From a virus (lineage: Duplodnaviria; Caudoviricetes): a DNA stretch of 56,589 nucleotides. The position numbers and the translations under genes were made by a program. Below, one piece after another: positions 4,342-56,589 of the stretch. The DNA is taken from the IMG/VR virus record IMGVR_UViG_3300049893_000970, positions 1 through 56,589 of that record. One strand, 5' to 3'. Each line of letters opens with the position of its first letter. The first letter of the stretch is position 1. A model generated the notes under the pieces. The model was given only the letters and a program-made list of their open reading frames with translations. It searched no databases and was not told the origin of the DNA.

Positions 4342-4378
4342 CCGCCGCGTCCGTCGCTAGCCTCGGTGGTCGTGCCTG

Positions 4379-4782
4379 ATGAAGCGGAAGCGGTGGCTGG
4401 TGGAGCCTCGCCGGACGTTCAAGCAGTCGTCCGACCCGCTGTACGACGAGCACGTCCGAGAGATGTGCGCGGCGTGGGATATCCGTCGACGGGCAATGCG
4501 GAGTTCGGAGGGCGCACCCTCAACGCCCTCAGCCGCAAGGTCGAGGTCCCGTTCCCCGGCACCCACGACGGCGTCCACCCGCCGATCACGCAAGCCGAGC
4601 GGCGGCGAGTCGAGCAGTTCATCGGCTGCACCATCGAGCAGTCCTACTCCGAGTTCACCGTCGAGTTGAAGAATGCCCTGCACCGGATGCTCGCCGACAT
4701 CGCCAACGTCGATCACTCCCGGCCTGCTCGCCACCGTGGGCATCGCAGCCGCGAGCGGTACAGCAAGTGGAAGGTGAGTTGA
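4379..4782 (+). pseudogene. Hypothetical gene with an apparent frameshift near 4500
   Basis: High-GC3 codon usage switches from the 4379 frame (MKRKRW...) to the 4366 frame (EFGGRTL...) near 4497-4502. Confidence 0.5.
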
Positions 4783-4783
4783 C

Positions 4784-5467
4784 GTGATCGCGGTCATCGT
4801 CCCGGCGCTCGGACGCCCGGAGCGCGTGGCACCCCTGCGGGCTTCGCTGGACGCGGCTGCGACGGTCCCGACGACACTGCTCTACGTCATCAGCCCAGAC
4901 GACGACGCGACGAGGGACGCGTGTGACGCCGCTGGCGTGGCGCACGCCACGACTCCGTTCCCGCTCGCAGGCGGCGACTACGCGAGGAAGATCAACCTGG
5001 GCATCGACCTCACCCGCGACGCGTGGATATTCCAGGCGGGCGACGACATCAAGTTCCACCGCGGGTGGGACACGACCGCACTGGCCGTGGCCGAGCGCTC
5101 CGACGCGGCTGGCGTGATCGGGACGAACGACCTCGGAAACCCGCTGGTGAAGTCCGGCCGCCACTCGACGCACTCGCTCATCTCGCGGGAGTACGTGGAG
5201 GTCTGGGGCACCATCGACGAGCCGGGCAAGGCGCTGCACGAGGGCTACTGGCACTGCTGGGTGGACAACGAACTGATCGAGACCGCGAAGTCGCGCGGCG
5301 CGTACTTCGCCGCCCGCCGATCCATCGTCGAGCACATGCACTGGGTCTGGCACAAGGGCGCGAAGGACGCCACGTACCAGCGCGGGCAGGAGCGCTACCA
5401 CGAGGACCACCTGCTGTTCATGCAGCGCAGAGCCTTGTGGCGTGGTGGCAGAGTGGTATCGTCTTGA
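4784..5467 (+). CDS. GT2-like glycosyltransferase
   Basis: IAVIVPALGRP start, AGDD (DxD-like), DNE and VEHMH motifs. Confidence 0.85.
   Translation: MIAVIVPALGRPERVAPLRASLDAAATVPTTLLYVISPDDDATRDACDAAGVAHATTPFPLAGGDYARKINLGIDLTRDAWIFQAGDDIKFHRGWDTTALAVAERSDAAGVIGTNDLGNPLVKSGRHSTHSLISREYVEVWGTIDEPGKALHEGYWHCWVDNELIETAKSRGAYFAARRSIVEHMHWVWHKGAKDATYQRGQERYHEDHLLFMQRRALWRGGRVVSS
5435..5462 (+). promoter_or_regulatory. Putative promoter TTGTGG-N16-TATCGT for a near-leaderless Arc-like gene
   Basis: AGTGG precedes the -10 as in the other copies; ATG is 8 nt downstream. Confidence 0.45.
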
Positions 5468-5988: not shown

Positions 5989-6506
5989 GGACGCTGCTCA
6001 TCGCTCCACACGCCGACGACGAGACGCTGTTCGCCAGCTTCCTCGCGCAGCGCCATGCCGCCCACATCCACGTCGTCTACGACGAGGGGCGCGAGGACGA
6101 ACTGCGGGCGGCGACCGCGTGGCTCGGCTGCACCTGCTCGCAGGGCAACGTCCCGAAGGGGGCGAGCGAGGACGTGGTCGAGGCGGCGCTGATCGGGCTG
6201 CGCGACCCGAGCGGCGCGGACGACTGGGACCTGGTGATCGCTCCGTCTGAGGACGTCGCCGGACACGAGGAGCACAACATCGTGGCGCGGCGTGCCTGGG
6301 AGACGTTCGGCGACCTGGAGATCATTCAGTACCGGACCTATGCCCCGCGAGGCTCGCGCTCGGTCGGCGTGCCCCTGGAGCCGGACCGCCCCTCGTTCAT
6401 CGCGCGCAAGCTCGCCGCGCTCTCCTGCTACCGCTCGCAGATCGAGGACCCGGCGACCCGGCCCTGGTTCTACGATCTGCTCGACCTCAGGGAGTGGATC
6501 GCATGA
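5985..6506 (+). CDS. PIG-L/LmbE-family N-deacetylase
   Basis: APHADDE, GHEEH and KLAALSCYRSQ motifs; GTG start at 5985. Confidence 0.9.
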   Translation: MRTLLIAPHADDETLFASFLAQRHAAHIHVVYDEGREDELRAATAWLGCTCSQGNVPKGASEDVVEAALIGLRDPSGADDWDLVIAPSEDVAGHEEHNIVARRAWETFGDLEIIQYRTYAPRGSRSVGVPLEPDRPSFIARKLAALSCYRSQIEDPATRPWFYDLLDLREWIA

Positions 6507-6955
6507 AGGTTCTCGCAGCAGCATTCGGCACCGCCGCGCTCGCCGTGAGCGGCTTCCTCGTGGCCGACCGGGCAGGCGTGGTCTCGCTCACCGGGAGCAC
6601 CGCGACGACCGTGTCCGTCCCGGCTCCGCAGAACCTGCGCGTGGTCGAGGCCGGGGAGACGACCGTGAAGGTGAGCTACGGCCCGAGCGTGGTCGGCCCG
6701 CTCCGCATCGCCCCGTTCGACAACGGCAAGGGCGCGAAGATCACGTGGGCGGGATCGACGGACGCGCTCTACCCGCTCGGCATCACCTACATGGCGAGCA
6801 AGAACGGGAAGGACCTGTGGGCGGCGAACAAGGCGCAGACGTACGCGAACGTCGGCTTCACGCTGGCGGTGCGGAAGTTCACGACATGCGTGGTGCCGCA
6901 CTCAACCTCAGGCTTCGGACCCAAGCGGTGCGTGACCTGGACGGCACCGCCGTGA
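6503..6955 (+). CDS. Secreted beta-rich (fibronectin type III-like) protein
   Basis: Signal-like N-terminus; PAPQNLRVV...TTVKVSY. Confidence 0.55.
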   Translation: MKVLAAAFGTAALAVSGFLVADRAGVVSLTGSTATTVSVPAPQNLRVVEAGETTVKVSYGPSVVGPLRIAPFDNGKGAKITWAGSTDALYPLGITYMASKNGKDLWAANKAQTYANVGFTLAVRKFTTCVVPHSTSGFGPKRCVTWTAPP

Positions 6956-7061
6956 GCCTCGGAGGCGGTCGCTGGTTCCTCTGGATCGGCCGCACGGGCT
7001 TCGGCTTCCGCGTGCGCTGGATCGAGTTCCAGTTCTACTGGTACGGCGTGAAGGGTCGGCG

Positions 7062-7616
7062 ATGACGCTCCACGAGTTGGAGCGCGAGTCGATCCGCGCC
7101 TTCGTCCGCTCGGCAGCAGACGAGGGCTACCTCTCCGGGCGCGTGCTCGACTACGGCTGCGGGAAGCAGCCCTACCGACCCATCGTCGAGGCGGCGGCTG
7201 GCGAGTACATCGGCTTCGACAGTGCCAGCTTCCCCGGCTCCGTCGTGTCCGAGGAGATCGGCCCGGAGGAGGACCGCGTGCTGTACCCGTTCGAGGAGTA
7301 CGACGCGATTCTCTGCACGCAGGTCGTCCAGTACCTCCCGCTCGCCCGCAACTCGGGCTACACGCACCACTGGCCGCTGATCCTGTGGGAGTGGAAGGCC
7401 TCGCTCGCTATCGACGGGCTGCTCGTGATGACATACCCGACGAACTGGCCCGAGGTCGAACCCGAGGACCTCCACCGCTTCACGAAGGCGGGCATGGCGC
7501 GGCTGCTGACCGAAGCAGGCTTCACCATCGTGCGCCATGAGGTGCGCGGATATCACGACACCAAGTTGAGTTACGCCAGCCTGGCGCTGGGCTACGGGGT
7601 GGTGGCCCGGGCATGA
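7062..7616 (+). CDS. Class I SAM-dependent methyltransferase
   Basis: VLDYGCGKQPY, YDAILCTQV, DLHRFT. Confidence 0.9.
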   Translation: MTLHELERESIRAFVRSAADEGYLSGRVLDYGCGKQPYRPIVEAAAGEYIGFDSASFPGSVVSEEIGPEEDRVLYPFEEYDAILCTQVVQYLPLARNSGYTHHWPLILWEWKASLAIDGLLVMTYPTNWPEVEPEDLHRFTKAGMARLLTEAGFTIVRHEVRGYHDTKLSYASLALGYGVVARA

Positions 7617-16217: not shown

Positions 16218-16223
16218 TCCCAC

Positions 16224-16265
16224 TTGACTTCCTCCGCACGAGTGGTAGATTACGGAGTGCCATGA
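16224..16265 (+). promoter_or_regulatory. Sigma70-type promoter, repeated family copy 1
   Basis: TTGACT-N16-TAGATT with extended -10 TG, followed by GAGTGCCATGA. Confidence 0.75.
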
Positions 16266-16557
16266 CGGACACGACCACAGAGGAGACGACGATGAAGGTG
16301 AGCTCCACCGGACGAACGCGAAGCCCGAGCGCACCAGCGTGATCGGCAAGCCCATCGACCTCCCGCGCTACGACGTGATGATCGACGGCGAGAAGGTCGG
16401 CGAGGTCTACGCCGCCCTCAGCCGCGAGAGCAGGCACTACAGCAGCGGAAGCGTGAAGCTCTGGTACGGACGGATCGGGGGCAGGAGCCTCGGAGCCGGG
16501 TACAACTCGAAGAACGACGCACGCGACGCCTTGGTCGAGAGGGTGGTGGCCGCCTGA
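16262..16557 (+). pseudogene. Small hypothetical gene, apparent 1-nt frameshift near 16300
   Basis: SD-led ATG 16292 (MKV) is out of frame with ELHRTNAKPERTSVIGKP...; one extra base would restore it. Confidence 0.5.
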
Positions 16558-17184: not shown

Positions 17185-17256
17185 CGCGGGGTAGTGCAGC
17201 GGCCAGCACGCCGGTCTCATGCGCCGGAAGCGCGGGTTCGAGTCCCGCCCCCGCTA
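17185..17256 (+). tRNA. tRNA with CAT anticodon (Met/fMet-like or Ile2); CCA not encoded
   Basis: Full cloverleaf: CGCGGGG/CCCCGCT, GTGC/GCAC, CCGGT-CTCATGC-GCCGG, GCGGG-TTCGAGT-CCCGC. Confidence 0.88.
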
Positions 17257-17263
17257 CTTCGGA

Positions 17264-20787: not shown

Positions 20788-23223
20788 ATGGGTGCCGCCA
20801 AGATCATCCGCCATCTGCGTCGCCTGTTCGACGTGGACGACACGAACTACGCGCCTGGCCGCGTCGTCGCGGTCAAGGGCGACGGCTCCGAGCACGAGTA
20901 TGTCGACCAGACGGGCGGCGGTGCTCCTGGGGCCACGGGGGCCACGGGAGCCACGGGAGCGGCTGGTGCGACCGGTAGCACCGGTTCCGGCTCGACTGGC
21001 GCTACGGGCGCACAGGGCGCGACTGGAGCGCAAGGAGCGACCGGCTCCATGGGTGCCACGGGTGCCACGGGTTCCGGAGCGACCGGAGCGACTGGAGTCG
21101 GCTCCACGGGTGCGACCGGGCCTGCTGGTGCGGACGGCGGACTAGGCGCAACCGGGGCGACCGGACCTCCTGGCGGGGCGTCATCTCAGGGCGCGACCGG
21201 CAACACGGGAGCGACTGGCGCAACCGGGGCGACCGGAGCGGGCACGACCGGAGCCACGGGACCGGCTGGCGGCCAGGGAGCGACCGGCGCGACAGGAGTC
21301 GAGGGCCTCGCTGGCGACCCCGGCGCGACTGGAGCCACGGGCACCACGGGCGCAACGGGTCCGCAAGGTACGACCGGGGCGACTGGACCCGTCGGCTCGA
21401 CTGGAGCGACTGGCGTCCAGGGCACGACAGGCCCGACCGGGACGCAAGGTGCGACCGGGGCGACGGGCACGGCGGGCACGGCGGGTGCGACCGGGAACAC
21501 GGGCAGCACTGGGGCGACGGGCTCTCAGGGCAGCACCGGGGCGACTGGCGCGGTCGGAGCGACCGGCGTCGAGGGTCTCCCCGGAGATCAGGGCTACACG
21601 GGCGCGACTGGAGCGACCGGCGGGCAAGGGGCCACCGGAGCGACCGGCACCCAGGGAACCCAGGGTTCGACCGGCGCGACCGGAACGCAAGGCGTCCAGG
21701 GGGCGACCGGGGCGACCGGCACGCAGGGCGGCCAGGGAGCGACCGGCGCGACCGGAACGCAAGGCGTCCAGGGGGCGACCGGGGCGACCGGCACGCAGGG
21801 CGGCCAGGGAGCGACCGGCGCGACCGGAACGCAAGGCACGCAGGGCGCAACGGGAGCCACCGGAGCCGACGGCTCGCAGGGTGCGACAGGAGCGACCGGA
21901 GTCGGCAACACCGGGAACACGGGCGCGACCGGAACGCAGGGAGCGACTGGCTCCACCGGAACACAGGGCGCGACCGGGATCGAAGGGCTGCCGGGAGATC
22001 GCGGCTACACCGGGGCGACTGGCGCTCAGGGCACCACGGGGCCGACCGGAGCCGATGGGGCGACGGGCGCGACGGGAGCAGCCGGCGGAGATTCCACGAC
22101 CTACACATATGCCAGTGGTTCCACTGCTCACGCTGATCCCGGCAGTGGGAAGTTCCGTTTCAACAACGGGACCATCTCTTCCGTCACCGCTATCTACGCT
22201 AGTGAGTTCAACGACGGGGCCGTAGATGTGAAGCCGTGGTGGCTTGGAATGGAGGCTGGTGGCCGACTACGCATCTTCGACCCCTTCGACGCAGTGGGCA
22301 CATGGGTCGTCTTTGAGTTGAATAGTGCCCCAAGCTACGACACGGATCACATCGACGCGAGTGTCACCTTCATCGACCAAGGTTCATGGACGACTGGTGG
22401 TGACATACCGGGGTACGTCGTTACTTATGCGCCTCCAGGTGGGCAGGGAGCGACTGGGACGCAGGGGAACACAGGCAATACGGGCGTCCAGGGAGCCACC
22501 GGACCGACCGGCGTCGGCAACACGGGCGCGACGGGAGCCACCGGAGCCACGGGTGTCGAGGGCCTGCCTGGCGACCGGGGCTACACCGGGGCCACGGGAG
22601 CGACCGGGGCGCAGGGCGCGACGGGCAACACGGGCACGGGTGGCGCTCAGGGCGCGACGGGGAACACTGGCGTCGGAGCGACGGGCGCGACCGGGAGCCA
22701 GGGCAACACGGGCGCGACCGGCGCGAAGGCGAACGGAACGCTCTACCTCTCGGCGCAGGGAATGGTCCCGGCGACCACGAACGGAGCGCAACTCGTCAAG
22801 AACGTCGAGGCCACGAACGTCATCAACTACTACACGCTCGACTTCGACACGACCACGCAGGAGATCGCGTGGGCCATGTTCGCCATGCCCTCGGACTGGG
22901 ACGGCGGCACCGTCACCTTCGAAGCCGAGTGGACGGCAACCGGCACATCGACCAACAACGTGCAGTGGGAGTTCGCTGGCCGCTCGTATGGCGACTCGGA
23001 GACGCTGGATCAGGCGATGGGCACGGTCCAGGTCATCTCGGACGCGCACACCGCGACCGCGCTCCAGGCGCAGAGGTCGGGTGCGACCCCGGCGCTTACC
23101 TTCGGGGGCACGCCAGCCGCTGGCGAACTGGTGGCGGTCCGCATCCGCCGCGACGTGGCGAACGACAACCTGGCCGTTGACGCGAAGCTCATCGGCATCG
23201 TGATGAACTACACCCGGACGTAG
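20788..23223 (+). CDS. Collagen-like (Gly-Ala-Thr) fibre protein 1
   Basis: Long G-X-T triplet tracts interrupted by a globular domain; C-terminal beta-rich domain. Confidence 0.9.
21668..21837 (+). repeat. 72-bp exact tandem repeat (~2.3 copies) within collagen gene
   Basis: Unit encodes [24 protein letters not shown]. Confidence 0.85.
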
Positions 23224-31844: not shown

Positions 31845-33502
31845 TGAGCCGCCCCATCTACGAGGACACCGACCAGACGCAGATCTCGAAGGCACGCTGG
31901 CGCGGCACCGACCTCCAGCGCCGCCCGCTCGCTGGCCGCTGGATCCAGCCGCAGGGCACGTTCGCCGACACACCGCCCGCTGATCGCCCTGCACCGCCCG
32001 ACCTCCAGAACGGATGGGAGCAGCCCGACGACGGCGATACCGATCAGGAGGACCTGGCGAAGCACGAGTTCCGCTGGCACGCGGACGGCTCGCTGGAGTT
32101 CAAGGGCTACCTGATCCCGGGCACCTGGGACGCGCTCGCGTACACGCTGCCGAGCGCCATCGACGTCGAGCCGGACTACGTCCCGACGAAGAACGTCTCG
32201 TTCCTCATCGACGTGTTCGACCCCGGCACCAACGAGTTCCAGGTCGGGCGGCTGCTGGTGTACGGCGTGAACCACGCGAACGCCGGACAGGTCTGGATCT
32301 TCCAGGAGGCGGCTGCGGGGTCAGTCGGCGCGACAGGAGCCGCTGGCGGACAGGGAGCTACCGGAGCCACTGGATCGCAGGGAGCTACCGGCACGCCCGC
32401 AGGGGCGACGGGGAACACTGGGGCGACCGGAGCGAATGGAGCGACAGGTGCGACCGGAGCGACCGGGGCTGGCGCGACAGGCGCGACGGGTCCGCAGGGT
32501 GCTACGGGAAGCCCTGGCGGCGCGACGGGCGCGACGGGTCCGGCGGGAAGCCCTGGCGGCGCGACAGGTGCGACGGGCGCGACGGGCGCGACGGGCGACG
32601 CGGGCGAGACGGGAGCCACCGGAGCCGACGGTGTTCCCGGTCCGTTCGGCGGCGGCGTGGCGATCAGCTACGCGTTCTCGACCACCACCACCGATAGCGA
32701 TCCCGGCAACGGCGTCCTGCGCCTCAACAACGCGACCCAGTCGAGCGCGACCGTCATCCGCGCCGATCTGCTCGATGCCATCGGGAACGACTGGACGGCG
32801 GTGCTTGACTCGTTCGACGACTCATCGAGCACGGTCAAGGGCCACATCCGCCTCGCCACCAACGACCTCCTCAACTGGATCGTGTTCACGGTCTCGGCGG
32901 TGGCAAGCCCGAGCGGCTACCGGAACATCACCGTCGCCGTCGTGGACTCGTCTGCGACCAACCCGTTCACCGATGGTGAGGACATCACCCTCCTCTTCAC
33001 GCGCACGGGCGACTCTGGCGTCGGCGCGACGGGCGCGACCGGGGCGCAGGGTGCGACCGGGGCGCAGGGCAGCACCGGGGCGACTGGCGCAGGCGCGACC
33101 GGGGCGACCGGAGCGACGGGAGCCGTCGGCAACCCGCAGGTGCAGTGCAAGGTCATCGCGGACGCTACGACCGTCACGACCGGAGACGGCAAGGGGTCGT
33201 TCCTGATCGACGACAGCCTGAACGGGAAGAACCTGGTGGACGCCGACGCAGCCGTGGTCACGGCTTCATCGAGCGGGACGCCGACGGTGCAGCTTCGGCG
33301 GGTACGGAGCGGCTCTCCGGTTGACATGCTCTCGACCGCAATCACTATCGACGCGAACGAGTTGGACTCGTACTCGGCCGCGACGCAGCCGGTTATCAAC
33401 GGCTCCAACGACGACGTGCAGACGGGTGATCGCATCTTCTTCGACGTGGACGTGGCGGGCACGGGCACGAAGGGGCTGGACGTGCAGATGGAGTTCCAGT
33501 AG
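31844..33502 (+). CDS. Collagen-like (Gly-Ala-Thr) tail fibre protein 2
   Basis: LQNGW N-terminal domain, GAT tracts, DPGNG.LRLNN domain and C-terminal domain. Confidence 0.85.
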
Positions 33503-40973: not shown

Positions 40974-41068
40974 GCGCTGCCGCCTGATGCACGACCCGGA
41001 GCCGCCCATCGAGGCGGCTCCGTCGCTCTGGCGCGCTCTAGCCCGCGCTGTTGAGCGAGAACTTCGAC

Positions 41069-41110
41069 TTGACTTCCTCCGCCCGAGTGGTAGAGTTCCG
41101 AGTGCCATGA
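41069..41110 (+). promoter_or_regulatory. Promoter family copy 2 (start of early region)
   Basis: TTGACT-N16-TAGAGT...GAGTGCCATGA. Confidence 0.8.
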
Positions 41111-41355
41111 AGCAGCCGACTACGAAGGAGACGGCGATGCAGCCCGCCAGCCTGCTCGACCAACTCGACATCACCCCGCTGCACATCGAGCGCGGACGCC
41201 AGATGCGCTCAGTGGTGCAGCACGACATCGCGCACCGCGGACTCAGCGCGGAGAGCGCAGTCGAGTCGCTCGCCAGCTACCTCGGAGTCGAGGTGGAGAC
41301 GGTGAGACTCGCCATCGCCATCGCCAACGAGGCCGACGCGGCGGAGAGGGCGTGA
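41107..41355 (+). CDS. Hypothetical protein (alternative SD-led ATG at 41137)
   Basis: First ORF after the promoter. Confidence 0.6.
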   Translation: MKQPTTKETAMQPASLLDQLDITPLHIERGRQMRSVVQHDIAHRGLSAESAVESLASYLGVEVETVRLAIAIANEADAAERA

Positions 41356-43070: not shown

Positions 43071-44030
43071 ATGACAGCAATCGAGGCAGCAGAGAGACCC
43101 GGATACGCGGTGGGTCCCACGGATGACCCGTGGCCGATCCTGCCCGCGCCGACGACGGAGGATCGCCGCACGGTCTACGAGCGCATGGTCGCCGTGATCG
43201 CGGAGCTACCGGCCATCGGCAAGACGCAGAAGAACACGCAGCAGAACTTCATGTTCCGTGGGCACGACGACGTGATGAACGCGCTCAACCCGCTGCTGGC
43301 GAAGCACGGTGTGTTCATCGTGCCCGACGTGCTGGAGCGGATCACGGGCGAGCGGGTGACCGGGAACCAGAAGACGATGTACGAGGTCAACCTCCACGTC
43401 CGCTTCACCTTCTACGGACTGCTCGGCGACAGCTTCCGCGCGAGCGGGTGGGGCGAGGGCACGGACATGGGTGACAAGGGGACGAACAAAGCGATGACGA
43501 TGGCGTTCAAGTACGTCGTCGCACAGGCCTTCGCGCTGGCGACGGCGGAGATCTCGGACGCTGACCAGACCTCGCCGGAGGAGACGACACGCGGCGCGGC
43601 AGCCGCGGCGGCGGCGAGCGGGCGCAGGGAGTTCGACCCGGCGATCCACCTGCTCGACGGAGCCATCGTGGTCAGGACCGAGGAGGACGCGACCGCGCTG
43701 CGGATGGCACAGCGCGACCTCGACCCGAGCCAGGACTGGGCGGCCATCGAGGACTTCGTGGTGCTCTCGACCTTCGGCAAGCAGTACGACGCGCTGGAGG
43801 GCAGCGAGAAGCGCGAGTTCTACACGCGGCTGGCGAACGCAGTGGCGAAGGTGGATCAGATCGCCGGGCCGGGCGACTTCCCGCCCCCGAGCACGGAGCA
43901 GATCAAGGAGGCTTACGCCTGGGCCTTCAAGGGCGTCGTCCTGGCGCTCAGTGGCCCCGTGTCGCCCTCGGAGACTTCGGGCGACCAGCCAGCCGCGGAG
44001 GCCTCGGATGCGCCTGAGAACGCGTCCTGA
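43071..44030 (+). CDS. ERF-family single-strand annealing recombinase
   Basis: FRGHDDVMNALNPLLAKHG, GEGTDMGDKGTNKAMTMAFKY. Confidence 0.88.
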   Translation: MTAIEAAERPGYAVGPTDDPWPILPAPTTEDRRTVYERMVAVIAELPAIGKTQKNTQQNFMFRGHDDVMNALNPLLAKHGVFIVPDVLERITGERVTGNQKTMYEVNLHVRFTFYGLLGDSFRASGWGEGTDMGDKGTNKAMTMAFKYVVAQAFALATAEISDADQTSPEETTRGAAAAAAASGRREFDPAIHLLDGAIVVRTEEDATALRMAQRDLDPSQDWAAIEDFVVLSTFGKQYDALEGSEKREFYTRLANAVAKVDQIAGPGDFPPPSTEQIKEAYAWAFKGVVLALSGPVSPSETSGDQPAAEASDAPENAS

Positions 44031-45820: not shown

Positions 45821-46375
45821 ATGGACATGAGCGCTGCTCTGCGGCTCTACAACCCGGAGGACCTGGGAGTAGACGGATACCCGAGCGCATGGCACCCCGA
45901 CTCCTGGCAGGACAATCTGCGCTGCGATCCCGTGAAGGACATCGTGCGCGAGATCGCGGGTCACCGCTGCGAGCGATGCAACCACCCGTACCTCACGCGC
46001 CGCCGCGAGCCGCGCATCTCGCAGGGAGGGCAGTGGTCACCCTGCGACATGCTGTGCGCGCACGGAGGGCCGACGCGCCGACGCGCTGGAGGCGAGAACG
46101 AAGCACAGTGGCGCATCCTCACCGTCCATCACCTGAACGGCGTCAAGTGGGACTGCCGCTGGTGGAATCTTGCCGCGCTCTGCCAGCGGTGCCACCTGGC
46201 GATCCAGGCGAAGGTGCTCATGGAGCGCGTCTGCCCGCTGGAGCACTCGGAGTGGTTCAAGCCGCACGCCGCGGGCTGGTACGCGGCGGCCTACCTGGGC
46301 GAGGACCTGACCCGCCGCGAGACGCTCGCACGCTTGGACGAGTTGCTCGCACTGGAGCGAGTGGAAGGAGCGTGA
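45821..46375 (+). CDS. HNH-like nuclease
   Basis: CERC, LTVHHLNG...NLAALCQRCH. Confidence 0.8.
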   Translation: MDMSAALRLYNPEDLGVDGYPSAWHPDSWQDNLRCDPVKDIVREIAGHRCERCNHPYLTRRREPRISQGGQWSPCDMLCAHGGPTRRRAGGENEAQWRILTVHHLNGVKWDCRWWNLAALCQRCHLAIQAKVLMERVCPLEHSEWFKPHAAGWYAAAYLGEDLTRRETLARLDELLALERVEGA

Positions 46376-49442: not shown

Positions 49443-49775
49443 GTGCGCGACCCGGAGCTACTTCGCACGCTGCACGTTCTCTGGCGCGGCGAGTGCGTGC
49501 TGGAGACCATCAGCGACTGCTACCGGCAGCGCTACTCGCTCCACCACATCCACCGGCATCCGCGCGATGACGTTCGCGGCAACCTGGTCATGCTCTGCGG
49601 CGACGGTGTGCAGGGGCACCACGGCCAGATCACCGCGGAGTCCTCGACTGCGAAGGCCGCGCTCGGTCAATACATCCTCGCCCACCGTCTCGACACGCTT
49701 CGGTACCTCGCTGACAAGCTCGGCGACGAGCAGGCGCGCGCGTGGCTCCGCGCGCGGCTATACGCTCCGGTCTGA
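49443..49775 (+). CDS. HNH-like protein
   Basis: SLHHI...DD..GNLVMLCG..GHHG. Confidence 0.65.
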   Translation: MRDPELLRTLHVLWRGECVLETISDCYRQRYSLHHIHRHPRDDVRGNLVMLCGDGVQGHHGQITAESSTAKAALGQYILAHRLDTLRYLADKLGDEQARAWLRARLYAPV

Positions 49776-51052
49776 TGCCGACCCGAGCGAAGGTCTGGAA
49801 CGGGAACGACTCGCTGCGACGGCTGCTCGTCCGCACCGAGGACCTGCACGCACACCCGAGCAACCCGCGGCGTGGGAACGTCGAGGTCATCCAGCGCTCG
49901 CTCGAACGCTTCGGCCAGCAGCGCCCGCTGCTCGCGCTGCCGGACGGCACCATCGTCGCCGGGAACCACACCTACCGGGCCGCCGTGGAGTCGGGCTGGA
50001 CGCACATCGCGGTCGTGCGCTCGGACCTCACCGACGCGGAGGTGGACGCCTACCTCGTCGCGGACAACCGCACCAGCGACCTCGGCGTGTACGACGACAC
50101 GCAACTCGCGGCGCTGCTCAAGAGGCAGTACGACGACGACACGCTGCTCGGGACCGGCTACGAGCGCGACGACGTGGAGGAGCTACTCACGCGGTTGGCG
50201 TGGGACGGACTCGGCCCGCGCGAAGGAGCGGACGACCCTGCGCCCGAGCCTCCGGAGGAGCCTCGCTCCGAGCGGGGCGTCGTGTACGAACTCGGATCGC
50301 ACCGGCTGATGTGCGGAGACTCCTGCGACCCCGACGACGTGGCAACGCTGCTCGACGGCGCGACGCCGATTCTCATGCTCACCGATCCTCCGTACGGGAT
50401 CGAACTCGATATGGAGTGGCGCGACCGCGCGGGCCACAACGAACTGAACCCGGCGGAGCCGTCGTACATGCAGCGGATGGACGGGCTCCACAACACGACC
50501 ATCTCCGGCGACACGCGCGCGGACTGGAGCGAGGCGTTCGCGCTCGTCCCATCGCTGAAGATCGCGTACGTGTGGCATGCCTCCCATCACGCCTGCGAGG
50601 TGAAGGCGGGACTGGAGCGGATCGGCTTCGTCGTCGCGCAGACGATCATTTGGGACAAGACCCGCTTCGCCATGTCGCGCTCGCACTACCACTGGCAGCA
50701 CGAGCCGTGCTACTACGCTCGTAAGCAGGGATCGCGGAAGTGGCGTGGCTCGATGAATCAGTCCACGATCTGGAGCGCGCCCTCGCCGAAGATGATCATG
50801 GCGGGCACGACCGAGACGAAGGTCGATCACCCGACGCAGAAGCCAGTGATGGTCTACACGCGGCCCATCGAGAACCACCTGCGCGCGGGCGAGCCGTTCT
50901 ACGAACCGTTCGGAGGCAGCGGCACCGGGTTCATCGCGGCGGAGCAGACCGGGCGCGTGTGCCTGGCGATGGAGATCGACCCGAAGTACGTGGACGTGAT
51001 CCGCCAGCGGTACGCAGCCTTCACGGGCCAGCCCGAGTACGCACCGCAGTAG
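49775..51052 (+). CDS. ParB/Srx-like domain fused to N6-adenine DNA methyltransferase
   Basis: NPRR, IVAGNH, ADNR; TDPPYG, HPTQKP, EPFGGSGT. Confidence 0.92.
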   Translation: MPTRAKVWNGNDSLRRLLVRTEDLHAHPSNPRRGNVEVIQRSLERFGQQRPLLALPDGTIVAGNHTYRAAVESGWTHIAVVRSDLTDAEVDAYLVADNRTSDLGVYDDTQLAALLKRQYDDDTLLGTGYERDDVEELLTRLAWDGLGPREGADDPAPEPPEEPRSERGVVYELGSHRLMCGDSCDPDDVATLLDGATPILMLTDPPYGIELDMEWRDRAGHNELNPAEPSYMQRMDGLHNTTISGDTRADWSEAFALVPSLKIAYVWHASHHACEVKAGLERIGFVVAQTIIWDKTRFAMSRSHYHWQHEPCYYARKQGSRKWRGSMNQSTIWSAPSPKMIMAGTTETKVDHPTQKPVMVYTRPIENHLRAGEPFYEPFGGSGTGFIAAEQTGRVCLAMEIDPKYVDVIRQRYAAFTGQPEYAPQ

Positions 51053-51097
51053 CGCGCACGCCGTTCCGGCTGGCACCATTCCGGGTAGTGATGCGCT

Positions 51098-51424
51098 ATG
51101 GACAGGCCGGATCTGCACACCCGTGAGTGGCGTGAGCTACCCCGCGACGGTGACTGCGTCGCCGAGTTCATCTTCGGCGAGGCCGCTGGCCCGTGCCACG
51201 GCGTCATGCACCGGCACCACGTCCGGCCGGGCGATCCCGCGGCGTCGCGCACGTACCTGGCCTGCGCCGGACACCACCCGCTGATCGAGTCGTTCCTGCG
51301 TCGCCTACAGCGGCGCGCCGACCGCGTGCTCGGCTACCGACGCTGCCCGCACCGTCCGGGCGTGCATCGCTATCCCGGCGCGCGAGAGGCGTGCGAGCGG
51401 CAACTGAACGCGCGCGCTGCGTAG
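51098..51424 (+). CDS. Cys/His-rich (HNH-like) protein
   Basis: HRHHV...CAGHH. Confidence 0.55.
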   Translation: MDRPDLHTREWRELPRDGDCVAEFIFGEAAGPCHGVMHRHHVRPGDPAASRTYLACAGHHPLIESFLRRLQRRADRVLGYRRCPHRPGVHRYPGAREACERQLNARAA

Positions 51425-51449
51425 CACTCGCAGGCGTCCATCTTTCGAC

Positions 51450-51491
51450 TTGACTAACCACGCGGAAGTGGTAGAGTAGCGAGTGCCATGA
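51450..51491 (+). promoter_or_regulatory. Promoter family copy 3
   Basis: TTGACT-N16-TAGAGT...GAGTGCCATGA. Confidence 0.8.
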
Positions 51492-51877
51492 AGTCCACGA
51501 CCACACAGGAGGCACAGACGATGCCCGCAACCTTCGAGTACAGCACGCGCCAGATGATGGCCGAGTACGACGAGATGGAAGCCGCGAAGGCGGAGCACGA
51601 GGGCGACCCGGTCGCGCAGCTACTGATCGAGCAGGAGGGTGGCGCGCGGATGGCACTCGGTGATGATCTGCGGAGACTGCGCGAAGAGGCAGAGAGGCTC
51701 GCCCGCCGCGCCCTGCGGATCGTCAGCATGATCGACGAGCGCGGACTCAGCTACACGCCCAACTCGCTCGGCGAGATCCAGAGCCACCAGGTCGATGTGC
51801 AGTGCGCGAAGGTCTACGCCGCCTCGACCCGCCTGGAGTCGGTGCAGCGCGAACTGCGCAAGCACCTGGAGTCCTGA
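51488..51877 (+). CDS. Hypothetical coiled-coil protein (alternative SD-led ATG at 51521)
   Basis: First ORF after the promoter. Confidence 0.65.
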   Translation: MKSTTTQEAQTMPATFEYSTRQMMAEYDEMEAAKAEHEGDPVAQLLIEQEGGARMALGDDLRRLREEAERLARRALRIVSMIDERGLSYTPNSLGEIQSHQVDVQCAKVYAASTRLESVQRELRKHLES

Positions 51878-51971
51878 TGACCACGACAGAACTCGCAGAC
51901 TCGACGGAGCGCACGATGAGCGCCGTCGATACCGCCGGGACCCTGGTCGGCTGCATGGAGGAGGGTGGGCG

Positions 51972-52235
51972 ATGACCGCCGACACCGGCAAGGTCGAGAC
52001 CGACCGCTGGCAGGTCTATTGGGACCACACCGGGCCGGGGCAGTTGACCTGGAACGTGCGCGACCGCGACGAGGGCTACGAGTACGTCGCTCGCCGCGAC
52101 GACGGCTGGCGCATCGCTCCGCGAGGGCACACGACCGTGGACAACGAAGTTCTGCTGGAGTACCTCGCCCGGACGGAGTTGGTGCCGGAGGAGGGCTGGC
52201 GCGACCTGCTCGCCCTGCTGGAGGGCGTGGCGTGA
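51972..52235 (+). CDS. Hypothetical protein
   Basis: SD-led ATG (MTADTGK). Confidence 0.6.
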   Translation: MTADTGKVETDRWQVYWDHTGPGQLTWNVRDRDEGYEYVARRDDGWRIAPRGHTTVDNEVLLEYLARTELVPEEGWRDLLALLEGVA

Positions 52236-52549
52236 GGACCGGATACGAGATACGCGAGGGCGCGGCGATGATCGCCGCCCGGATAGGAGAGACCGTGACG
52301 ACGGAGGAACTGACGAAGCTGTGCCCGCGCTGCGAGCGCAACTACTTCACGGTGCGCGATGCGTTCCGGAAGCAGCCCGCCCTCAGCCGGGAGCACCTGG
52401 TGGAGTACCCATACCCGGCGCTGTCGCGGGTCGCCAGGATCGACATCTGCTCGGCCTGCGGTCAGGATGAGGCGATGCGCGACTTCACGGGCGCGTCCCC
52501 GATCCCGCCCTACGAGTGGCCGATCAGGACGGACCCGGTGGCGGCGTGA
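52232..52549 (+). CDS. Zn-finger protein
   Basis: CPRC...PALSR...ICSACG. Confidence 0.65.
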   Translation: MRTGYEIREGAAMIAARIGETVTTEELTKLCPRCERNYFTVRDAFRKQPALSREHLVEYPYPALSRVARIDICSACGQDEAMRDFTGASPIPPYEWPIRTDPVAA

Positions 52550-52728
52550 GCAGCGTCGGCTACGTGCGCATCCGGGCCGAGAACACGCGCTACGCACTCG
52601 ACGCCCGCGACCGGCACATCGCGCTGGCCGCACGCGAGGGCGTAGCGGCGGAGGTCATCGCAGAGTACGCGGGACTCTCCGTCGAGGAGGTCAAGGACAT
52701 CATCGAGGCACAGCAGGAGGAGGCATGA
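52546..52728 (+). CDS. Small HTH protein
   Basis: GVAAEVIAEYAGLSVEEV. Confidence 0.6.
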   Translation: MSSVGYVRIRAENTRYALDARDRHIALAAREGVAAEVIAEYAGLSVEEVKDIIEAQQEEA

Positions 52729-53183
52729 GCGAAGTCGACATCCGCGAGCGCGAGGAACTGGCGCTGCCGCACTCGGGCGAACTGATCGACCTGAGCGACG
52801 AGACTGCATGCGGCGTCGCGCTCGACGAGGTGCGGAGGATGCAGGCGCATCTCGCCGAGGCCGTGCGCACCCTCAGCGCTGCCATCGCGGCGCGCGGAGC
52901 GGTGCTCGGCACCAAGACGATCAAGCTCTCAGGCGGTCGCAAGGCCGAGATCAAGGGCGGGCCGGAGAAGCACTACGACGCGCAGGAGATCGAGCGCGGG
53001 CTGCGGCTGCTCGGGATGCCGGAGGAGCGACTCCGCGAGATCGTGCGTGAGGAGATCACGTACTCCGTGGTCGCTCGCGAGGCCAAGCGCGCTGCCGGGG
53101 CGAACCCCGAGTACGCGCGTGTCATCGAGAACGCGACCAGCGAGGTCGAGCGCCCCTGGTCCGTCACCATCCGCCGTCGATGA
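52725..53183 (+). CDS. Hypothetical protein
   Basis: SD GGAGGAGG; HSGELID. Confidence 0.65.
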   Translation: MSEVDIREREELALPHSGELIDLSDETACGVALDEVRRMQAHLAEAVRTLSAAIAARGAVLGTKTIKLSGGRKAEIKGGPEKHYDAQEIERGLRLLGMPEERLREIVREEITYSVVAREAKRAAGANPEYARVIENATSEVERPWSVTIRRR

Positions 53184-53229
53184 CCGCCGAGCCTGTTACG
53201 GTCCGCCGACGCGCTGAGAGGAGGGGCAC

Positions 53230-53421
53230 GTGATCTACGACCCCATCACCACGTTCGTTATCTACATGGTCGGAATCATCTTCCTCCTGACGCTCGTTGC
53301 CGCCGTGGCCGACTGGTCGCTGGCGAGGACGGAGCGCAAGCTTCGTGACCAGGCTCGCGCCGAAGCGCGGGCGAAGCTCCGAGAGGAGATGGAGGCATCA
53401 CCCGCCGAATGGCTCTCCTAG
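53230..53421 (+). CDS. Small membrane protein
   Basis: One TM segment plus a charged tail. Confidence 0.55.
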   Translation: MIYDPITTFVIYMVGIIFLLTLVAAVADWSLARTERKLRDQARAEARAKLREEMEASPAEWLS

Positions 53422-54023
53422 TCCTGATCTCGTACCTCGTCGTCCTCACCGCCGTCACGGCGTGGGGAACGACTCGCAGTTCGGGCGCTGCGGTGGTCAC
53501 CCCCTCGACCACAGACAAGCAGCGCCCGAAGATCTGTCCCGACGCTCGCCGAGCAGTGCGCTACTACCAGCGCCACTACGCCGAGTGGCGGGCCAAGATG
53601 GGGGCAGAAGTCTCGGTTGCTGGCCGAACGCCTGGCTCCTGCCCCCGCTACCTTGCTGCCGTCTGGAAGCGCAAGGCGTATGCCGCCCGAGTCGCCTACC
53701 AGCGGTGGCACGAGTACCACTACGCCTGGTGGAAGTGGATGCCCGCGAAGCACCAGCGGGTCGCCCGCTGCGAGACGGGCTACCAGGGCGGGACCGGACC
53801 CGGCGGCTCACGATGGGACTGGGACTCGGGCCGCTACGTCAGCGCGTTCGGCATCTACCGACCCGCCTATGACGACGACGCCCATCGCGCCGGGAACCTC
53901 GGATGGGACGAGACGCTCCGGAGGCTCAGGCGCTACCCGACGCCGAGGGAGCAGATGCAGGCCGTGGACGCGCACCGGGATGCGCACGGCGGCTGGAGCG
54001 GGTGGGGGTGCCGAGGAGCATGA
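53409..54023 (+). CDS. Secreted Rpf/transglycosylase-like (lysozyme-fold) protein
   Basis: Signal/TM segment; VARCETG...W, TPREQMQAV, GWSGWGC. Confidence 0.65.
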   Translation: MALLVLISYLVVLTAVTAWGTTRSSGAAVVTPSTTDKQRPKICPDARRAVRYYQRHYAEWRAKMGAEVSVAGRTPGSCPRYLAAVWKRKAYAARVAYQRWHEYHYAWWKWMPAKHQRVARCETGYQGGTGPGGSRWDWDSGRYVSAFGIYRPAYDDDAHRAGNLGWDETLRRLRRYPTPREQMQAVDAHRDAHGGWSGWGCRGA

Positions 54024-54280
54024 GCTACATCGCTGGTGCCATCCTCGCGCTGCTCCTGCTCGCCGGAGTCGTCATCGTTGTGCTCGCGTTCCTCGACCGC
54101 CTGCCGTTCCCGAAGCAGCCGCTTGAGCCGACCCCGCTTCAACGCGAGATGGCCGAGTTCAACCGGGCGATGACGGACGTTCAGCGGACCGTCGGTGAGG
54201 CGATGCTCCCCGCCGTGCTGAAGATGAACGAGGCGATCAACCGCATGGGCGCTGCCTTCAGGAAGGAGCGCGAGCCGTGA
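54020..54280 (+). CDS. Small membrane protein
   Basis: N-terminal TM segment. Confidence 0.6.
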   Translation: MSYIAGAILALLLLAGVVIVVLAFLDRLPFPKQPLEPTPLQREMAEFNRAMTDVQRTVGEAMLPAVLKMNEAINRMGAAFRKEREP

Positions 54281-54576
54281 CCCCCGACCTACAAGCCGCG
54301 CCACAGAAGGCTAAGATGGCGTTCTGGATCGATGGCGGCTACGACTTCGACCTCGTTGCTGCCTGTCGGTATCACCCGCATCACAAGTGGTGGACATTCA
54401 GGCTCGGGGACGTGGTCGAGAACTGCGGCAACCCAGACGAGCGCATGACGATCTGTGCGGCCTGCTACGTCCCTCGCTGTAGCACGACCTCCGATCCTGA
54501 TCGCTGCACACTCTGGCGGCACCACGAGACTGAGCACGTCACGGAGAGCGGTCGCAAGATCGCGGTGGGCGCATGA
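54277..54576 (+). CDS. MTPDLQAA-leader Cys/His-rich protein
   Basis: CAAC, C...HH. Confidence 0.6.
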   Translation: MTPDLQAAPQKAKMAFWIDGGYDFDLVAACRYHPHHKWWTFRLGDVVENCGNPDERMTICAACYVPRCSTTSDPDRCTLWRHHETEHVTESGRKIAVGA

Positions 54577-54830
54577 GTGCCGACCTACAAGCCGCGCCAC
54601 GCCGCCGTGTCGTTATCGCATGGCTCGTGGCTGTCGCGCTGACCTATGGCTTCGGAACATTCGCGTTCGCGTCGAGCAAGTGGGTGCGCGGCGACATCGC
54701 ACCCTGGCTCGACGGTGTTCTGTCAGTCACGTTCCTGCTGTTCTTCTTCATGACCGCGATGGCCTGGGTCGTTGCTGGTTGGCTCACCGTTCGTTGGTGG
54801 GATGCCTCTACCGCTGGCGGTACCCCGTGA
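54573..54830 (+). CDS. MSADLQAA-leader two-TM protein
   Basis: Two hydrophobic segments. Confidence 0.6.
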   Translation: MSADLQAAPRRRVVIAWLVAVALTYGFGTFAFASSKWVRGDIAPWLDGVLSVTFLLFFFMTAMAWVVAGWLTVRWWDASTAGGTP

Positions 54831-54903
54831 CCCCCGACCTACAAGCCGCGCTGACGACGGTGCGGGATCGCTCGTCACGCCCTCGACGGGAAGGAGGAGG
54901 GAC

Positions 54904-55179
54904 GTGAGCAACATTAGCCCCGACGTGGCCGAGACTCGCGCACGCCGCAAGATCCGCGAAGCCGTCGAAGCGAAGGGCTGGACACTCCTTCGGCTGGTCT
55001 GGGAGCCGATCAGCCCCGGCGGTGAGAAGGAAGGGCTGTGTGGCGGATGGTACGGCGTGTGTCGCGCTCCTTCAGGCGGCGAGGACTGGGTGATGGGCTA
55101 CAACTGGCGGGAAACCGTGGAGTGGGCGGAGAAGTATCTGGCCGATGACAAGACGAGCCACCTGGGGAGGTACCCATGA
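54904..55179 (+). CDS. Hypothetical protein
   Basis: SD GGAGGAGG before the GTG (MSNISPD). Confidence 0.6.
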   Translation: MSNISPDVAETRARRKIREAVEAKGWTLLRLVWEPISPGGEKEGLCGGWYGVCRAPSGGEDWVMGYNWRETVEWAEKYLADDKTSHLGRYP

Positions 55180-55466
55180 CCCCCGACCTACAAGCCGCGC
55201 GGCGCTGCCCCGTCTGCGGTCAGCCGGTGGGTTCTCCTGCCTGTCGGGCCAACCATCCCTACGGCGGTGCCCCCGACCTGCACGCCGCGCTGGTCGCCAA
55301 GGCGCAGAAGTTCAAGCGCACGGTCTACAAGACACAGGACGGTATCGTACTCGATGCCACGCGCACTCTCGTCCGCTCTGACCTCGACGAGATGTGCGAC
55401 GGCGTGATCACTCTCGCGGCCAGGATCGCCGAGTTGGAGCGGGTAGTGGAGGCGGCGCGGCGGTGA
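55176..55466 (+). CDS. MTPDLQAA-leader protein with CPVC
   Basis: ATGA-coupled. Confidence 0.6.
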   Translation: MTPDLQAARRCPVCGQPVGSPACRANHPYGGAPDLHAALVAKAQKFKRTVYKTQDGIVLDATRTLVRSDLDEMCDGVITLAARIAELERVVEAARR

Positions 55467-55738
55467 CGCCAAATCCTAACTGCCCCTCCTGCGCTGGTGA
55501 TGGTTGGTACATCGACCACGAGGACTCGTGCTACGAGGAGGGTGACTGTAGTTGCTCGGGAGTGCAGGTGGCGTGCGAATGCACCTACGAGGGGGTGCGC
55601 AAGTACGTCTACGCCGCCGCTCATGGTGAGGAGCGTTCTTTCAACGACATCGCGCAGGACATCATCGACGCCGCGCCGCAGGTCGAGCCGCTCGTGGCTG
55701 ACGCCCTCACCGCCCTCGACGGGAAGGAGGAGGGGTGA
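55463..55738 (+). CDS. Cys-rich hypothetical protein
   Basis: CPSC..G.G, CSC, CEC. Confidence 0.6.
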   Translation: MTPNPNCPSCAGDGWYIDHEDSCYEEGDCSCSGVQVACECTYEGVRKYVYAAAHGEERSFNDIAQDIIDAAPQVEPLVADALTALDGKEEG

Positions 55739-56130
55739 GCGGCGAGCGAATAGAGGAGTTCGAGGAGATCGCTGAGATCGCCCGCGTGCTGGAAGCCATG
55801 TGGCCGGACGACCATCGCTCTGCGTCCTACCGCAAGGCGCTGACCGACAAGCTCTCGCGCATCGAAGAGCAGTTGGAGGCCATGCGAGAGGCTCTCCTGA
55901 TCCTCCGTGAGTCTCACGACGAGCATGACCCGAGGTGCGCGAGTCTTTTCGCGCCGCCGATGGAGTGCGACTGCGAGTACGGGATCATCGAGGACGCGCT
56001 CCGGGCCATGCGCGAGAAGCCGCTCGAGGCCGAGCAGCAGCGCATCCGGGCCGAGTCCATGAGCGCCGAGTACCACCCGACGTTCGCGGCGACCTTCGTC
56101 GCCTGCGGGGCGGCGAGTACCGGGTCGTGA
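55735..56130 (+). CDS. Hypothetical protein
   Basis: Coupled ORF; H..RC...CDC. Confidence 0.6.
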   Translation: MSGERIEEFEEIAEIARVLEAMWPDDHRSASYRKALTDKLSRIEEQLEAMREALLILRESHDEHDPRCASLFAPPMECDCEYGIIEDALRAMREKPLEAEQQRIRAESMSAEYHPTFAATFVACGAASTGS

Positions 56131-56170
56131 TGACCCCGGAGCAGTGGGCGGCGCTGTGGCGGGAGGCGAT

Positions 56171-56338
56171 GTGAGCCTCTCGAAACCACATTCGATGCGC
56201 TGGCTGGCGATGCTTGAACGATGGGCGGCAGAGCAGAACGCCGGTAATGCCTTTGCGGATCAGGTGCGCCAGTGGGCGATGGCTCACAGCGAGCGCCTGA
56301 ACGCTGCTTCGAGTCCAGCTTCGAGGCGGGACTTATGA
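56171..56338 (+). CDS. Small hypothetical protein
   Basis: Stop overlaps the methyltransferase ATG. Confidence 0.45.
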   Translation: MSLSKPHSMRWLAMLERWAAEQNAGNAFADQVRQWAMAHSERLNAASSPASRRDL

Positions 56339-56589
56339 TCTACCTCGCTGACCCCGACGTGGCGCTCTACCACGGGGACGCCTTGGTGGTCCTGCGGCAA
56401 CTACCGGATGAGTCAGTGGACTGCTGTGCGACAAGCCCGCCCTACTGGGGGCTTCGTGACTATGGGCCCATCGGGCAGGTTGGGTTGGAACCGACACCAG
56501 CCGAATACGTGGAGCGGCTCGTCGCGATCTTCGCGGAGGTCCGTCGCGTGCTCACCGCCGGCGGAACGCTCTGGCTCAACCTCGGGGAT
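56335..56589 (+). CDS. Beta-class DNA methyltransferase (N4-C/N6-A family), 5' part; continues through the junction to 967
   Basis: ATG 56335 gives MIYLADPDVALYHGDAL...DCCATSPPYWGLRDY; catalytic SPPY motif; overlaps the upstream stop (ATGA). Confidence 0.92.
   Translation, partial: MIYLADPDVALYHGDALVVLRQLPDESVDCCATSPPYWGLRDYGPIGQVGLEPTPAEYVERLVAIFAEVRRVLTAGGTLWLNLGD

Follow-up and report, generated by a model that had tools for sequence, protein, structure and literature searches.

A short repeat across overlapping stop and start codons as a putative linker between unrelated small genes of a phage

Introduction

The mosaicism of phage genomes is debated between two explanations, random illegitimate joints followed by selection and homologous exchange at short linkers. 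Boundary or linker sequences are an element of the modular theory, linkers are detectable at few junctions, and the examples described include a repeat of about 50 bp at the 3' ends of Island3 genes 67 and 68 (Pope et al. 2011, PMC3029335). In T4-type phages, short conserved blocks called PeSLs border the ORFan genes of the hyperplastic region; they were proposed to be homologous-recombination sites at which ORFans are inserted, deleted or replaced, and mini-circles were shown (Arbiol et al. 2010, PMC2839356; PeSLs are also treated by Comeau et al. 2014, PMC4122927). Here we describe an array of small genes in a stretch of 56,589 nucleotides (nt), the IMG/VR virus record IMGVR_UViG_3300049893_000970 (Duplodnaviria; Caudoviricetes), which we refer to as the window and whose numbering is used throughout. 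Unrelated genes of this array begin with the same block of 25–27 nt, referred to below as the start module, which spans the stop codon of one gene and the start of the next.

PeSLs are the closest known system, and the boundary sequences of the modular theory are also close. As with PeSLs, the blocks are repeated at borders beside ORFans and carry expression signals that travel with the cassette. However, a PeSL is intergenic, about 100 bp long and made up of a sigma-70 promoter and a stem-loop terminator, whereas the start module is part of coding sequence, bridges a stop/start overlap, endows unrelated proteins with the same octapeptide and is known here from sequence alone. The context is one of ORFans, but the block itself occupies the overlapping ends of two coding sequences. 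No PeSL-type promoter was found at the repeats, the sole promoter-like site in 51000–56589 being at 51450, and there was neither a fold shared among the four copies that could represent a PeSL-type stem-loop nor a terminator-like site at any copy. With boundary sequences the start module shares short identical border stretches that flank non-homologous DNA and are compatible with general recombination. In keeping with what defines such linkers, homology between the window and two related contigs (L002 and L003) was limited to patches at the junctions and one longer piece, and the backbones differ. Published boundary sequences are mostly single junctions or 3'-end repeats, whereas here four to five copies form an array, with six more in the relatives, and the block includes a start codon and N-terminal codons.

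Three other systems bear comparison. A 13-bp start-associated motif (SAS) at the ribosome-binding site, and an ESAS in the intergenic gap, have been described in Cluster EF Microbacterium phages (PMC7302621). The likeness is that of a conserved motif, of unproven function, at many gene starts of actinobacteriophage-like genomes; the difference is that SAS lies upstream of the start, whereas here it is the start codon and what follows that are conserved, and the ribosome-binding regions are not. SAS and ESAS are reportedly also found in Cluster K mycobacteriophages. In an alignment of 11 module copies the columns upstream of the starts, where a SAS would lie, were unconserved, and there was no gap that could hold an ESAS-type motif, the genes overlapping by 4 nt. 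Diverse proteins of T-even phages share only a short N-terminal leader, the capsid targeting sequence (PMC3012670), much as the leader M(T/S)(P/A)DLQAA is common to three unrelated cargo proteins in the window; the T4 sequence acts as a peptide, whereas here the evidence favours conservation of the nucleotides, and mini open reading frames (mini-ORFs) exist that consist of little but the leader. The start module also invites comparison with a site-specific cassette system. Integron gene cassettes lack promoters of their own and stand in arrays that are expressed from a promoter farther upstream, with a repeated site at the cassette borders. Integrons have been compared with PeSLs (PMC2839356), and the present locus has the promoterless, repeat-bounded array in common with them, but it differs in that the complete record has no integrase family match, the folds of the four copies have no attC-type hairpin in common and the repeated site is in the 5' coding end. 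In the literature searched, a scope that left subscription journals and supplementary files outside, we found no linker that spans a start codon and encodes a leader.

Results

The start module is repeated exactly at overlapping stop and start codons

The original prediction for this stretch, made from the letters and the open reading frames, was that a 17-nt core is identical at four gene starts spaced by 296, 254 and 349 nt, and that each copy overlaps the previous stop codon. This was borne out, with one correction that concerns the third copy (see below). On the + strand there are exact copies of the 17-mer CCGACCTACAAGCCGCG at 54284, 54580, 54834 and 55183, and the starts at 54277 (GTGA), 54573 (ATGA), 54827 (GTGA) and 55176 (ATGA) all overlap the stop codon that precedes them. 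The degenerate in-frame copy that had been noticed farther downstream, read PDLHAA, is also there, with two mismatches (CCGACCTGCACGCCGCG, 55273–55289, 90 nt after the fourth copy). Five copies of the 17-mer compare with a chance expectation of 0.47, and 0/100 shuffled sequences reached five; there were no further copies in the whole record, and no antisense copy of the module in the genome. The identity extends beyond the core to a block of 27 nt (CCGTGACCCCCGACCTACAAGCCGCGC, repeat family D12), which holds the stop codon of the upstream gene together with the start codon and the first eight codons of the next (Table 1). As a portable module the repeat follows the pattern (C)C[G/A]TGACCCCCGACCTACAAGCCGCG(C), with a GC content of 71%.

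Several observations indicated that it is the DNA, as had been suggested, that is conserved. Two codons of the module are indeed rare in this genome: CTA accounts for 12/560 leucine codons (2.1%) and CAA for 17/264 glutamine codons (6.4%) in a reference set of 15 long genes (6750 codons). The same codons, rare ones included, were nevertheless used in 10/10 available exact copies, four from the window and six from the relatives. The alignment of 11 copies (five from the window, four from L002 and two from L003) had 15 invariant columns, and the flanks were unrelated on both sides. In 45 pairwise comparisons the identical blocks measured 17–30 nt, with a median of 23; past the core, the extent of identity varied from pair to pair, with 0 to 6 exactly matching nt to the right and as many as about 28 nt to the left, and copy 3 has another 21 nt upstream (54806–54826) in common with L002.

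The cargo genes are unrelated and a second module marks some 3' ends

The claim that the genes behind the module differ completely in content was also upheld, as the cargo proteins were mutually dissimilar in every forward frame (tblastn, E<0.01). Four gene starts with the repeat had been proposed. Three of them head cargo genes, but the start at 54827 opens a mini-ORF of 26 codons only, and the next gene starts at 54904 with an unrelated start of its own. Nine proteins of the array had nothing over the curated cut-offs when compared with Pfam and PHROGs. A common origin of the cargo genes followed by frame shifting was considered and rejected, there being no cross-matches in other frames.

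The notion that the leader is portable rather than intrinsic to the cargo could be followed for cargo 1. The leader was present in 0/24 of its homologues, although one of them (P0012) has the partly similar sequence NPDLIP. The predicted fold of cargo 1 had a mean pLDDT of 70.9, with a mean of 55 for leader residues 1–10, which are predicted to be disordered; in a Foldseek comparison the model matched nothing in the PDB at E<=0.001.

A second repeated element, the exact 23-mer GCCCTCGACGGGAAGGAGGAGGG, is present in two copies (54879 and 55712; 0/100 shuffles). As it is read in another frame at 54879 than at 55712, the DNA rather than the peptide has been kept. Three parts make up the mini-ORF: the start module, a short segment with homology to the N-terminus of a protein family that we call family X, and this 3' boundary module out of frame. 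Thus a 5' module is followed almost at once by a 3' module, as in an empty cassette or a deletion remnant.

Both modules resemble the native ends of one protein family

With a 119-aa coiled-coil protein of L002 as the query, 10 proteins were matched. Five of these (P0026 and P0032–P0035, from JGI, NCBI, ENA and Logan sources) start with MTPDLQAALE, and two (P0034 and P0035) end with LDGKEE(G/E). The first 10 residues were invariant in 6/6 aligned family X proteins, which were otherwise 39–51% identical. A family X profile run on IMG/VR retrieved L002 and L003 again and no others. These starts and ends identify both modules as the native ends of family X; together with the absence of the leader from cargo 1 homologues, this indicates that the leader was transplanted onto foreign genes. 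On this reading the start module, the native 5' end of this coiled-coil family, was spread onto unrelated small ORFs in a translationally coupled array of accessory genes.

Relatives carry different cargo between the same modules

Exact scans covered three collections, IMG/VR, JGI metagenome contigs and GTDB genomes. Outside the window, copies in a gene-start context were found on two IMG/VR contigs only, L002 (four copies) and L003 (two copies), which come from one metagenome. The single 17-mer matches in IMG/VR (L001, L004–L007) lie in unrelated contexts. Scans with an exact 19-mer gave four loci in JGI metagenome contigs and five in GTDB genomes, all of them single-copy and none at an overlapping stop/start. 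A degenerate scan of IMG/VR that preserved the peptide gave nine other loci with one match each, in varied contexts, and no other multi-copy locus.

The original prediction had proposed a search for relatives with other cargo between the same repeats, and L002 and L003 proved to be such relatives. Between the window and these contigs, blastn aligned only patches of 34–49 nt at the junctions (90–96% identity), centred on the 5' or the 3' module, and one 116-nt piece of L003 (97% identity) that starts at 55296, 6 nt downstream of the degenerate copy. The DNA between the patches differs; its genes include further Cys-rich proteins, an ORF of 93 aa, paralogues of family X, which stand in tandem in L002 (copies 3 and 4), and two leader-only mini-ORFs (L002 copy 1 and L003 copy 2). 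With the one in the window, 3/10 exact copies head mini-ORFs of 14–26 codons that have no cargo.

Contigs of sequencing run X1, the one public run with the region, were also examined, and stretches of the window without coverage in that run were not counted as evidence. Among these contigs were the window genotype (record 4, at a depth of 62), one of depth 14.5 in which 55460 is joined straight to the module at 54276, and loose ends identical to cargo sequence of L002. Thus the modules co-exist in one community in three or more arrangements.

The relatives have a backbone of about 50% GC, in which the arrays form islands of 1.1–1.3 kb with 61–67% GC (L002, 8971 bp; L003, 1–7499); in L003 the shift in composition coincides exactly with the 5' boundary of a module copy, where CTAA replaces GTGA. 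L002 continues into a replication/recombination module with a PD-(D/E)XK nuclease, AAA_24, DUF669 and a primase. Taken in order, L003 at its end and L002 at its start match the window at 55296–55411 and at 55700–55740, and we infer from this sequence evidence that the two contigs are probably parts of one real, distantly related phage with a compositionally foreign cassette island. The gene just upstream of the array in the window (53409–54023) encodes a protein with an Rpf-like transglycosylase domain. L003 has a full-length homologue (4686–5276, minus strand; 33% identical, E 3e-23), 3.4 kb upstream of its array, in which PF06737 was matched (E 8e-8), and a further phage locus, L023, has one at 3786–4505. 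An Rpf-like gene precedes a small-gene array in three otherwise divergent phages, which hints at actinobacterial hosts. Provided that the contigs are real, modules at 100% identity beside a neighbour gene at only 33% imply that the cassettes moved horizontally. The large terminase (TerL) of the window had no match in the two relatives (G003 and G004).

Other phages have border repeats of their own

A homologue of cargo 1 is encoded at 11 IMG/VR loci, and ten of these were inspected (L034, a partial match of 30 residues, was left out). In L024, a complete record of 86.8 kb, two adjacent genes start with the identical 17-mer CCCCTAGCGACAAGAGC, which is different from that of the window, is read M(P/T)PSDKS and overlaps the upstream stop in each copy (L024 5179–5450; G001:78793 and 79041). 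Repeats of the ribosome-binding-site type were found at the borders of small genes in L023, L046 and L027, and L023 contains paralogous duplications inside its own array. L024 thus has the same architecture, independently and with another sequence. Taken together, the repeats of these four loci show that border modules recur in such arrays, uniform within a genome and different between lineages.

The border repeat of L023 is CGAGACGAAGGAGG..GTGAGC, four times in 6090–7211, and the neighbouring proteins share a ...ETKEE C-terminus as a result. L046 has TAGGAGGATAG.TAGGGTCATG at 2985, about 3982 and 4227. L023 also holds, at 2246–2557, about 18 tandem copies of a 12-nt unit, which encode (D/A)QVW-type tetrapeptides in a 352-aa protein.

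Discussion

A proposed coding linker for short-homology exchange

The most likely reading, in our view an even call, is that the repeat is a coding-region linker for the shuffling of cassettes by short homology, a variant of phage boundary sequences and PeSLs. On this proposal a crossover at any point of the block, whether the two copies belong to the same genome, to sister genomes or to co-infecting phages, would delete, duplicate or exchange whole cassettes. As the stop of one gene and the start of the next are both part of the block, each such crossover would regenerate them intact and leave the flanking genes whole and translationally coupled. The second module would act likewise at the 3' side of some cassettes, providing the C-terminal ...LDGKEEG* together with the Shine-Dalgarno sequence of the next gene. 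The mechanism would be homologous or single-strand-annealing recombination, which may still be active. The annealase invoked in the original prediction exists, as the window encodes an ERF-family protein (Table 1), and this is a candidate catalyst of the exchange. Erf recombinase is described as acting on short or diverged homology, and minimal pairing lengths of 23–27 bp for Red-beta, a Rad52-like recombinase, and of 31–34 bp for RecA are given in the same source (De Paepe et al., PMC3945230); the identical blocks found here (median 23, up to 30 nt) are within this published range. That identity past the core differs in extent from pair to pair fits repeated crossovers at different points. 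The idea of a recombination joint has thus gained support from the identity at the DNA level and from the different cargo of the relatives, but no recombination event in progress was seen among the contigs.

A number of points weigh against this proposal. There was no ERF match in G001, which carries the analogous repeat, or in G002 (0/2), and the backbone of L002 has a different set of recombination genes. The first fusions of leader and cargo must have been illegitimate events, which homologous recombination does not explain. Start motifs of actinobacteriophages are conserved without a recombination role being shown in the description of SAS (PMC7302621), L023 and L046 also have repeats of the ribosome-binding-site type, so that selection on expression could explain the conservation, and the invariant first 10 residues of family X fit selection on the peptide as well. 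The samples are not independent, as the window itself may stem from run X1 and L002 and L003, the sole relatives, are from one metagenome. For the window genotype, the run X1 contigs contained no junction left by a deletion, a duplication or a circle, although contigs cannot show rare deletions or circles. Finally, L002 and L003 join DNA of about 50% GC to DNA of about 63% GC and could be assembly chimeras; the conserved gene neighbourhood and the CheckV completeness of the two relative records (81% and 16%) argue that they are real.

A bolder version is improbable in our view, namely a mobile cassette system of an undescribed kind, in effect an integron without integrase, in which the coding start module is the joint and a dedicated, unrecognised factor directs exchange between phages of very different lineages. 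The backbones concerned would be one of 68% GC with ERF and one of about 50% GC with Sak4-like and PD-(D/E)XK genes, and every captured gene would automatically receive a working translation start.

Alternative explanations

The main rival, which we think unlikely as the explanation though it could co-exist with a linker role, is that the block is a module of translation initiation or regulation, either an optimised or regulated re-initiation region or the site of a translational regulator of co-expressed genes, with shuffling as a by-product; the overlap of the genes leaves no intergenic space for a SAS-type motif. All exact copies do stand at coupled stop/start overlaps, decay, at 2/17 positions, is seen in the sole copy placed away from a start (55273), and the leader-only mini-ORFs relay translation onward through GTGA overlaps; start-associated motifs of actinobacteriophages (PMC7302621) and the ribosome-binding-site-type repeats of L023, L046 and L027 provide precedents, and the core was mostly unpaired in 3/4 minimum-free-energy folds. 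However, the Shine-Dalgarno regions 5' of the copies are unconserved. No RNA structure is common to the four copies (z-scores −0.5, −2.0, +0.5 and +0.7) and there was no Rfam match, the genome has no antisense copy of the module, a GC content of 71% gives no AT-rich ramp, and genes 54904, 55463 and 55735 of the same operon do without the block. Nor would a translation module explain why homology between the phages stops at it. That the block is instead a passive relic is a still weaker prospect: tandem family X duplicates would have had their bodies overwritten or deleted illegitimately, the 5' stubs being kept as working starts with no present role in recombination. The tandem paralogues in L002, the duplications within the L023 array and the mini-ORF, if read as the deletion remnant of a family X gene, would all suit such a history. 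It does not sit well with a core that has zero substitutions over 10 paralogous copies when orthologous flanks differ by 3–10%, with the same block in two backbones whose neighbour gene is only 33% identical, or with at least six different sequences not of family X that part from the block within 0–10 nt of the same point.

The original prediction had offered as its alternative a shared targeting peptide like that of the T4 internal proteins, so that the octapeptide MTPDLQAA would serve capsid packaging or docking onto a common partner. It is kept alive by the first 10 residues of family X, invariant in 6/6 proteins of several sources, and it agrees with the single reading frame of all copies and with the precedent of diverse T-even internal proteins that share the capsid targeting sequence only (PMC3012670). 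We nevertheless regard it as a poor candidate. Selection on a peptide leaves the lack of any synonymous variation in 10/10 copies, two rare codons included, without explanation; three of the ten copies head mini-ORFs with no cargo to target, one bearer has two hydrophobic segments of the membrane type, and the analogous repeat of G001 encodes another peptide, PSDKS. The homologues of cargo 1 evidently do not need a leader (0/24), the peptide-preserving scan of IMG/VR gave nine single-match loci and no other multi-copy one, and the leader is predicted to be disordered. There is very little chance, finally, that the block is the site of an unrecognised dedicated nuclease or recombinase in an integron-like, site-specific system. 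The limits of the block are very sharp on the left and on the right, the cassettes form an ordered array and a weak HNH-like gene is present at 45821–46375, but matches to the tyrosine and serine recombinase families are absent from the record, the attC-type hairpin was lacking as a common structure in the folds of the four copies (no separate inverted-repeat search was made), and variable identity past the core is what homology-driven rather than fixed-point exchange would leave.

Read as a linker, the locus is an unusually clean case for the debate on mosaicism, as a single genome holds several identical copies and an empty cassette, co-occurring relatives have other cargo and the block is found in two very different backbones; the presence of stop and start inside the block also offers a reason for such a linker to be favoured. 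It also advises caution in annotation based on motifs, as unrelated proteins can share an N-terminal peptide without a peptide function. If shuffling is active, the block could be a natural landing pad for the insertion of genes into such phages.

Genome setting of the array

As a viral record the window is complete: the opening 127 bases recur as the closing 127 (repeat family D11), and IMG/VR lists it with direct terminal repeats and a completeness of 100%. Its GC content is about 68%, and the genes called by third-position GC are on the + strand. Among 50,697 cultured-phage records there was no megablast or blastn match to the array region, and the large terminase was at most 31% identical to that of any of them. 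The array sits in a run of small genes (54020–56130) that overlap by 4 nt (GTGA/ATGA), and the promoter at 51450 probably drives the operon that contains it. No related loci were found for the gene at 55735–56130.

Table 1. Coordinates of the modules, the genes of the array and associated features in the window.
Feature	Coordinates	Strand	Remarks
Start module copy 1	54275..54301	+	TGA of 54020–54280; GTG and codons 2–8 (TPDLQAA) of 54277–54576
Start module copy 2, ATGAGTG variant (MSADLQAA)	54571..54597	+	Stop of 54277–54576; start of 54573–54830
Start module copy 3	54825..54851	+	Stop of 54573–54830; start of the 26-codon mini-ORF
Start module copy 4	55174..55200	+	Stop of 54904–55179; start of 55176–55466
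Degenerate in-frame internal copy (GAPDLHAAL)	55264..55290	+	Inside gene 55176–55466
3' boundary module copy 1, GCCCTCGACGGGAAGGAGGAGGG	54879..54901	+	Shine-Dalgarno source for gene 54904–55179
3' boundary module copy 2	55712..55734	+	In-frame LDGKEEG; Shine-Dalgarno source for gene 55735–56130
86-aa gene, hydrophobic N-terminus, upstream of array	54020..54280	+	Stop within module copy 1
Cargo 1, 99-aa, Cys/His-rich, metagenomic family	54277..54576	+	24 homologues, 57–82% identity
Cargo 2, 85-aa, two hydrophobic segments	54573..54830	+	Sole database match is itself
26-codon mini-ORF ("empty cassette")	54827..54907	+	TGA overlaps GTG at 54904
91-aa gene without leader (MSNISPDV...)	54904..55179	+	One relative, 53% identical (L046)
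Cargo 3, 96-aa	55176..55466	+	Leader, CPVC/zinc-ribbon-like stretch, degenerate module, family X-related C-terminal part
91-aa Cys-rich gene (MTPNPN...)	55463..55738	+	Ends ...ALDGKEEG*, family X C-terminal module
Sigma-70-like promoter	51450..51477	+	Sole one found in 51000–56589; TTGACT, 16 nt, TAGAGT
ERF-family single-strand annealing protein	43071..44030	+	PF04404, E 6.6e-22

The complete record gave 0 matches to Phage_integrase (PF00589), for which controls were matched in 14/14 genomes, and 0 matches to Resolvase (PF00239). The match of the HNH-like gene is below the Pfam cut-off (E 1.5e-4). Rfam, run in E-value mode on 51000–56589, gave 0 matches. A phage tRNA reading CUA or CAA was sought and none was found, tRNA-Met being the only tRNA; it has the anticodon CAT and lies alone at 17185–17257, within the structural region.

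The promoter upstream of the array belongs to a 76-nt repeat (family D10) that is present three times, at 16222–16297, 41067–41142 and 51448–51523, the copies being 74–83% identical to the reference copy. Each consists of a sigma-70-like promoter and a conserved leader that reaches an ATG, and the three are probably the main promoters of the phage. A repeat of about 60 nt occurs four times at 2457–2680 (62–80% identical to the reference copy), directly upstream of the large terminase gene (2662–4341), and may be an array for packaging recognition or protein binding. Two large genes of the structural region contain collagen-like Gly-X-Y tracts with a period of 9 nt (20900–22700 and 32350–33130). 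There are two DNA methyltransferase-like genes, one at 49742–51052 (N6_N4_Mtase, E 6e-14) and one at 56272–56589, which extends past the end repeat of the record and was assigned from the SPPYWGLRDY motif in its translation only.

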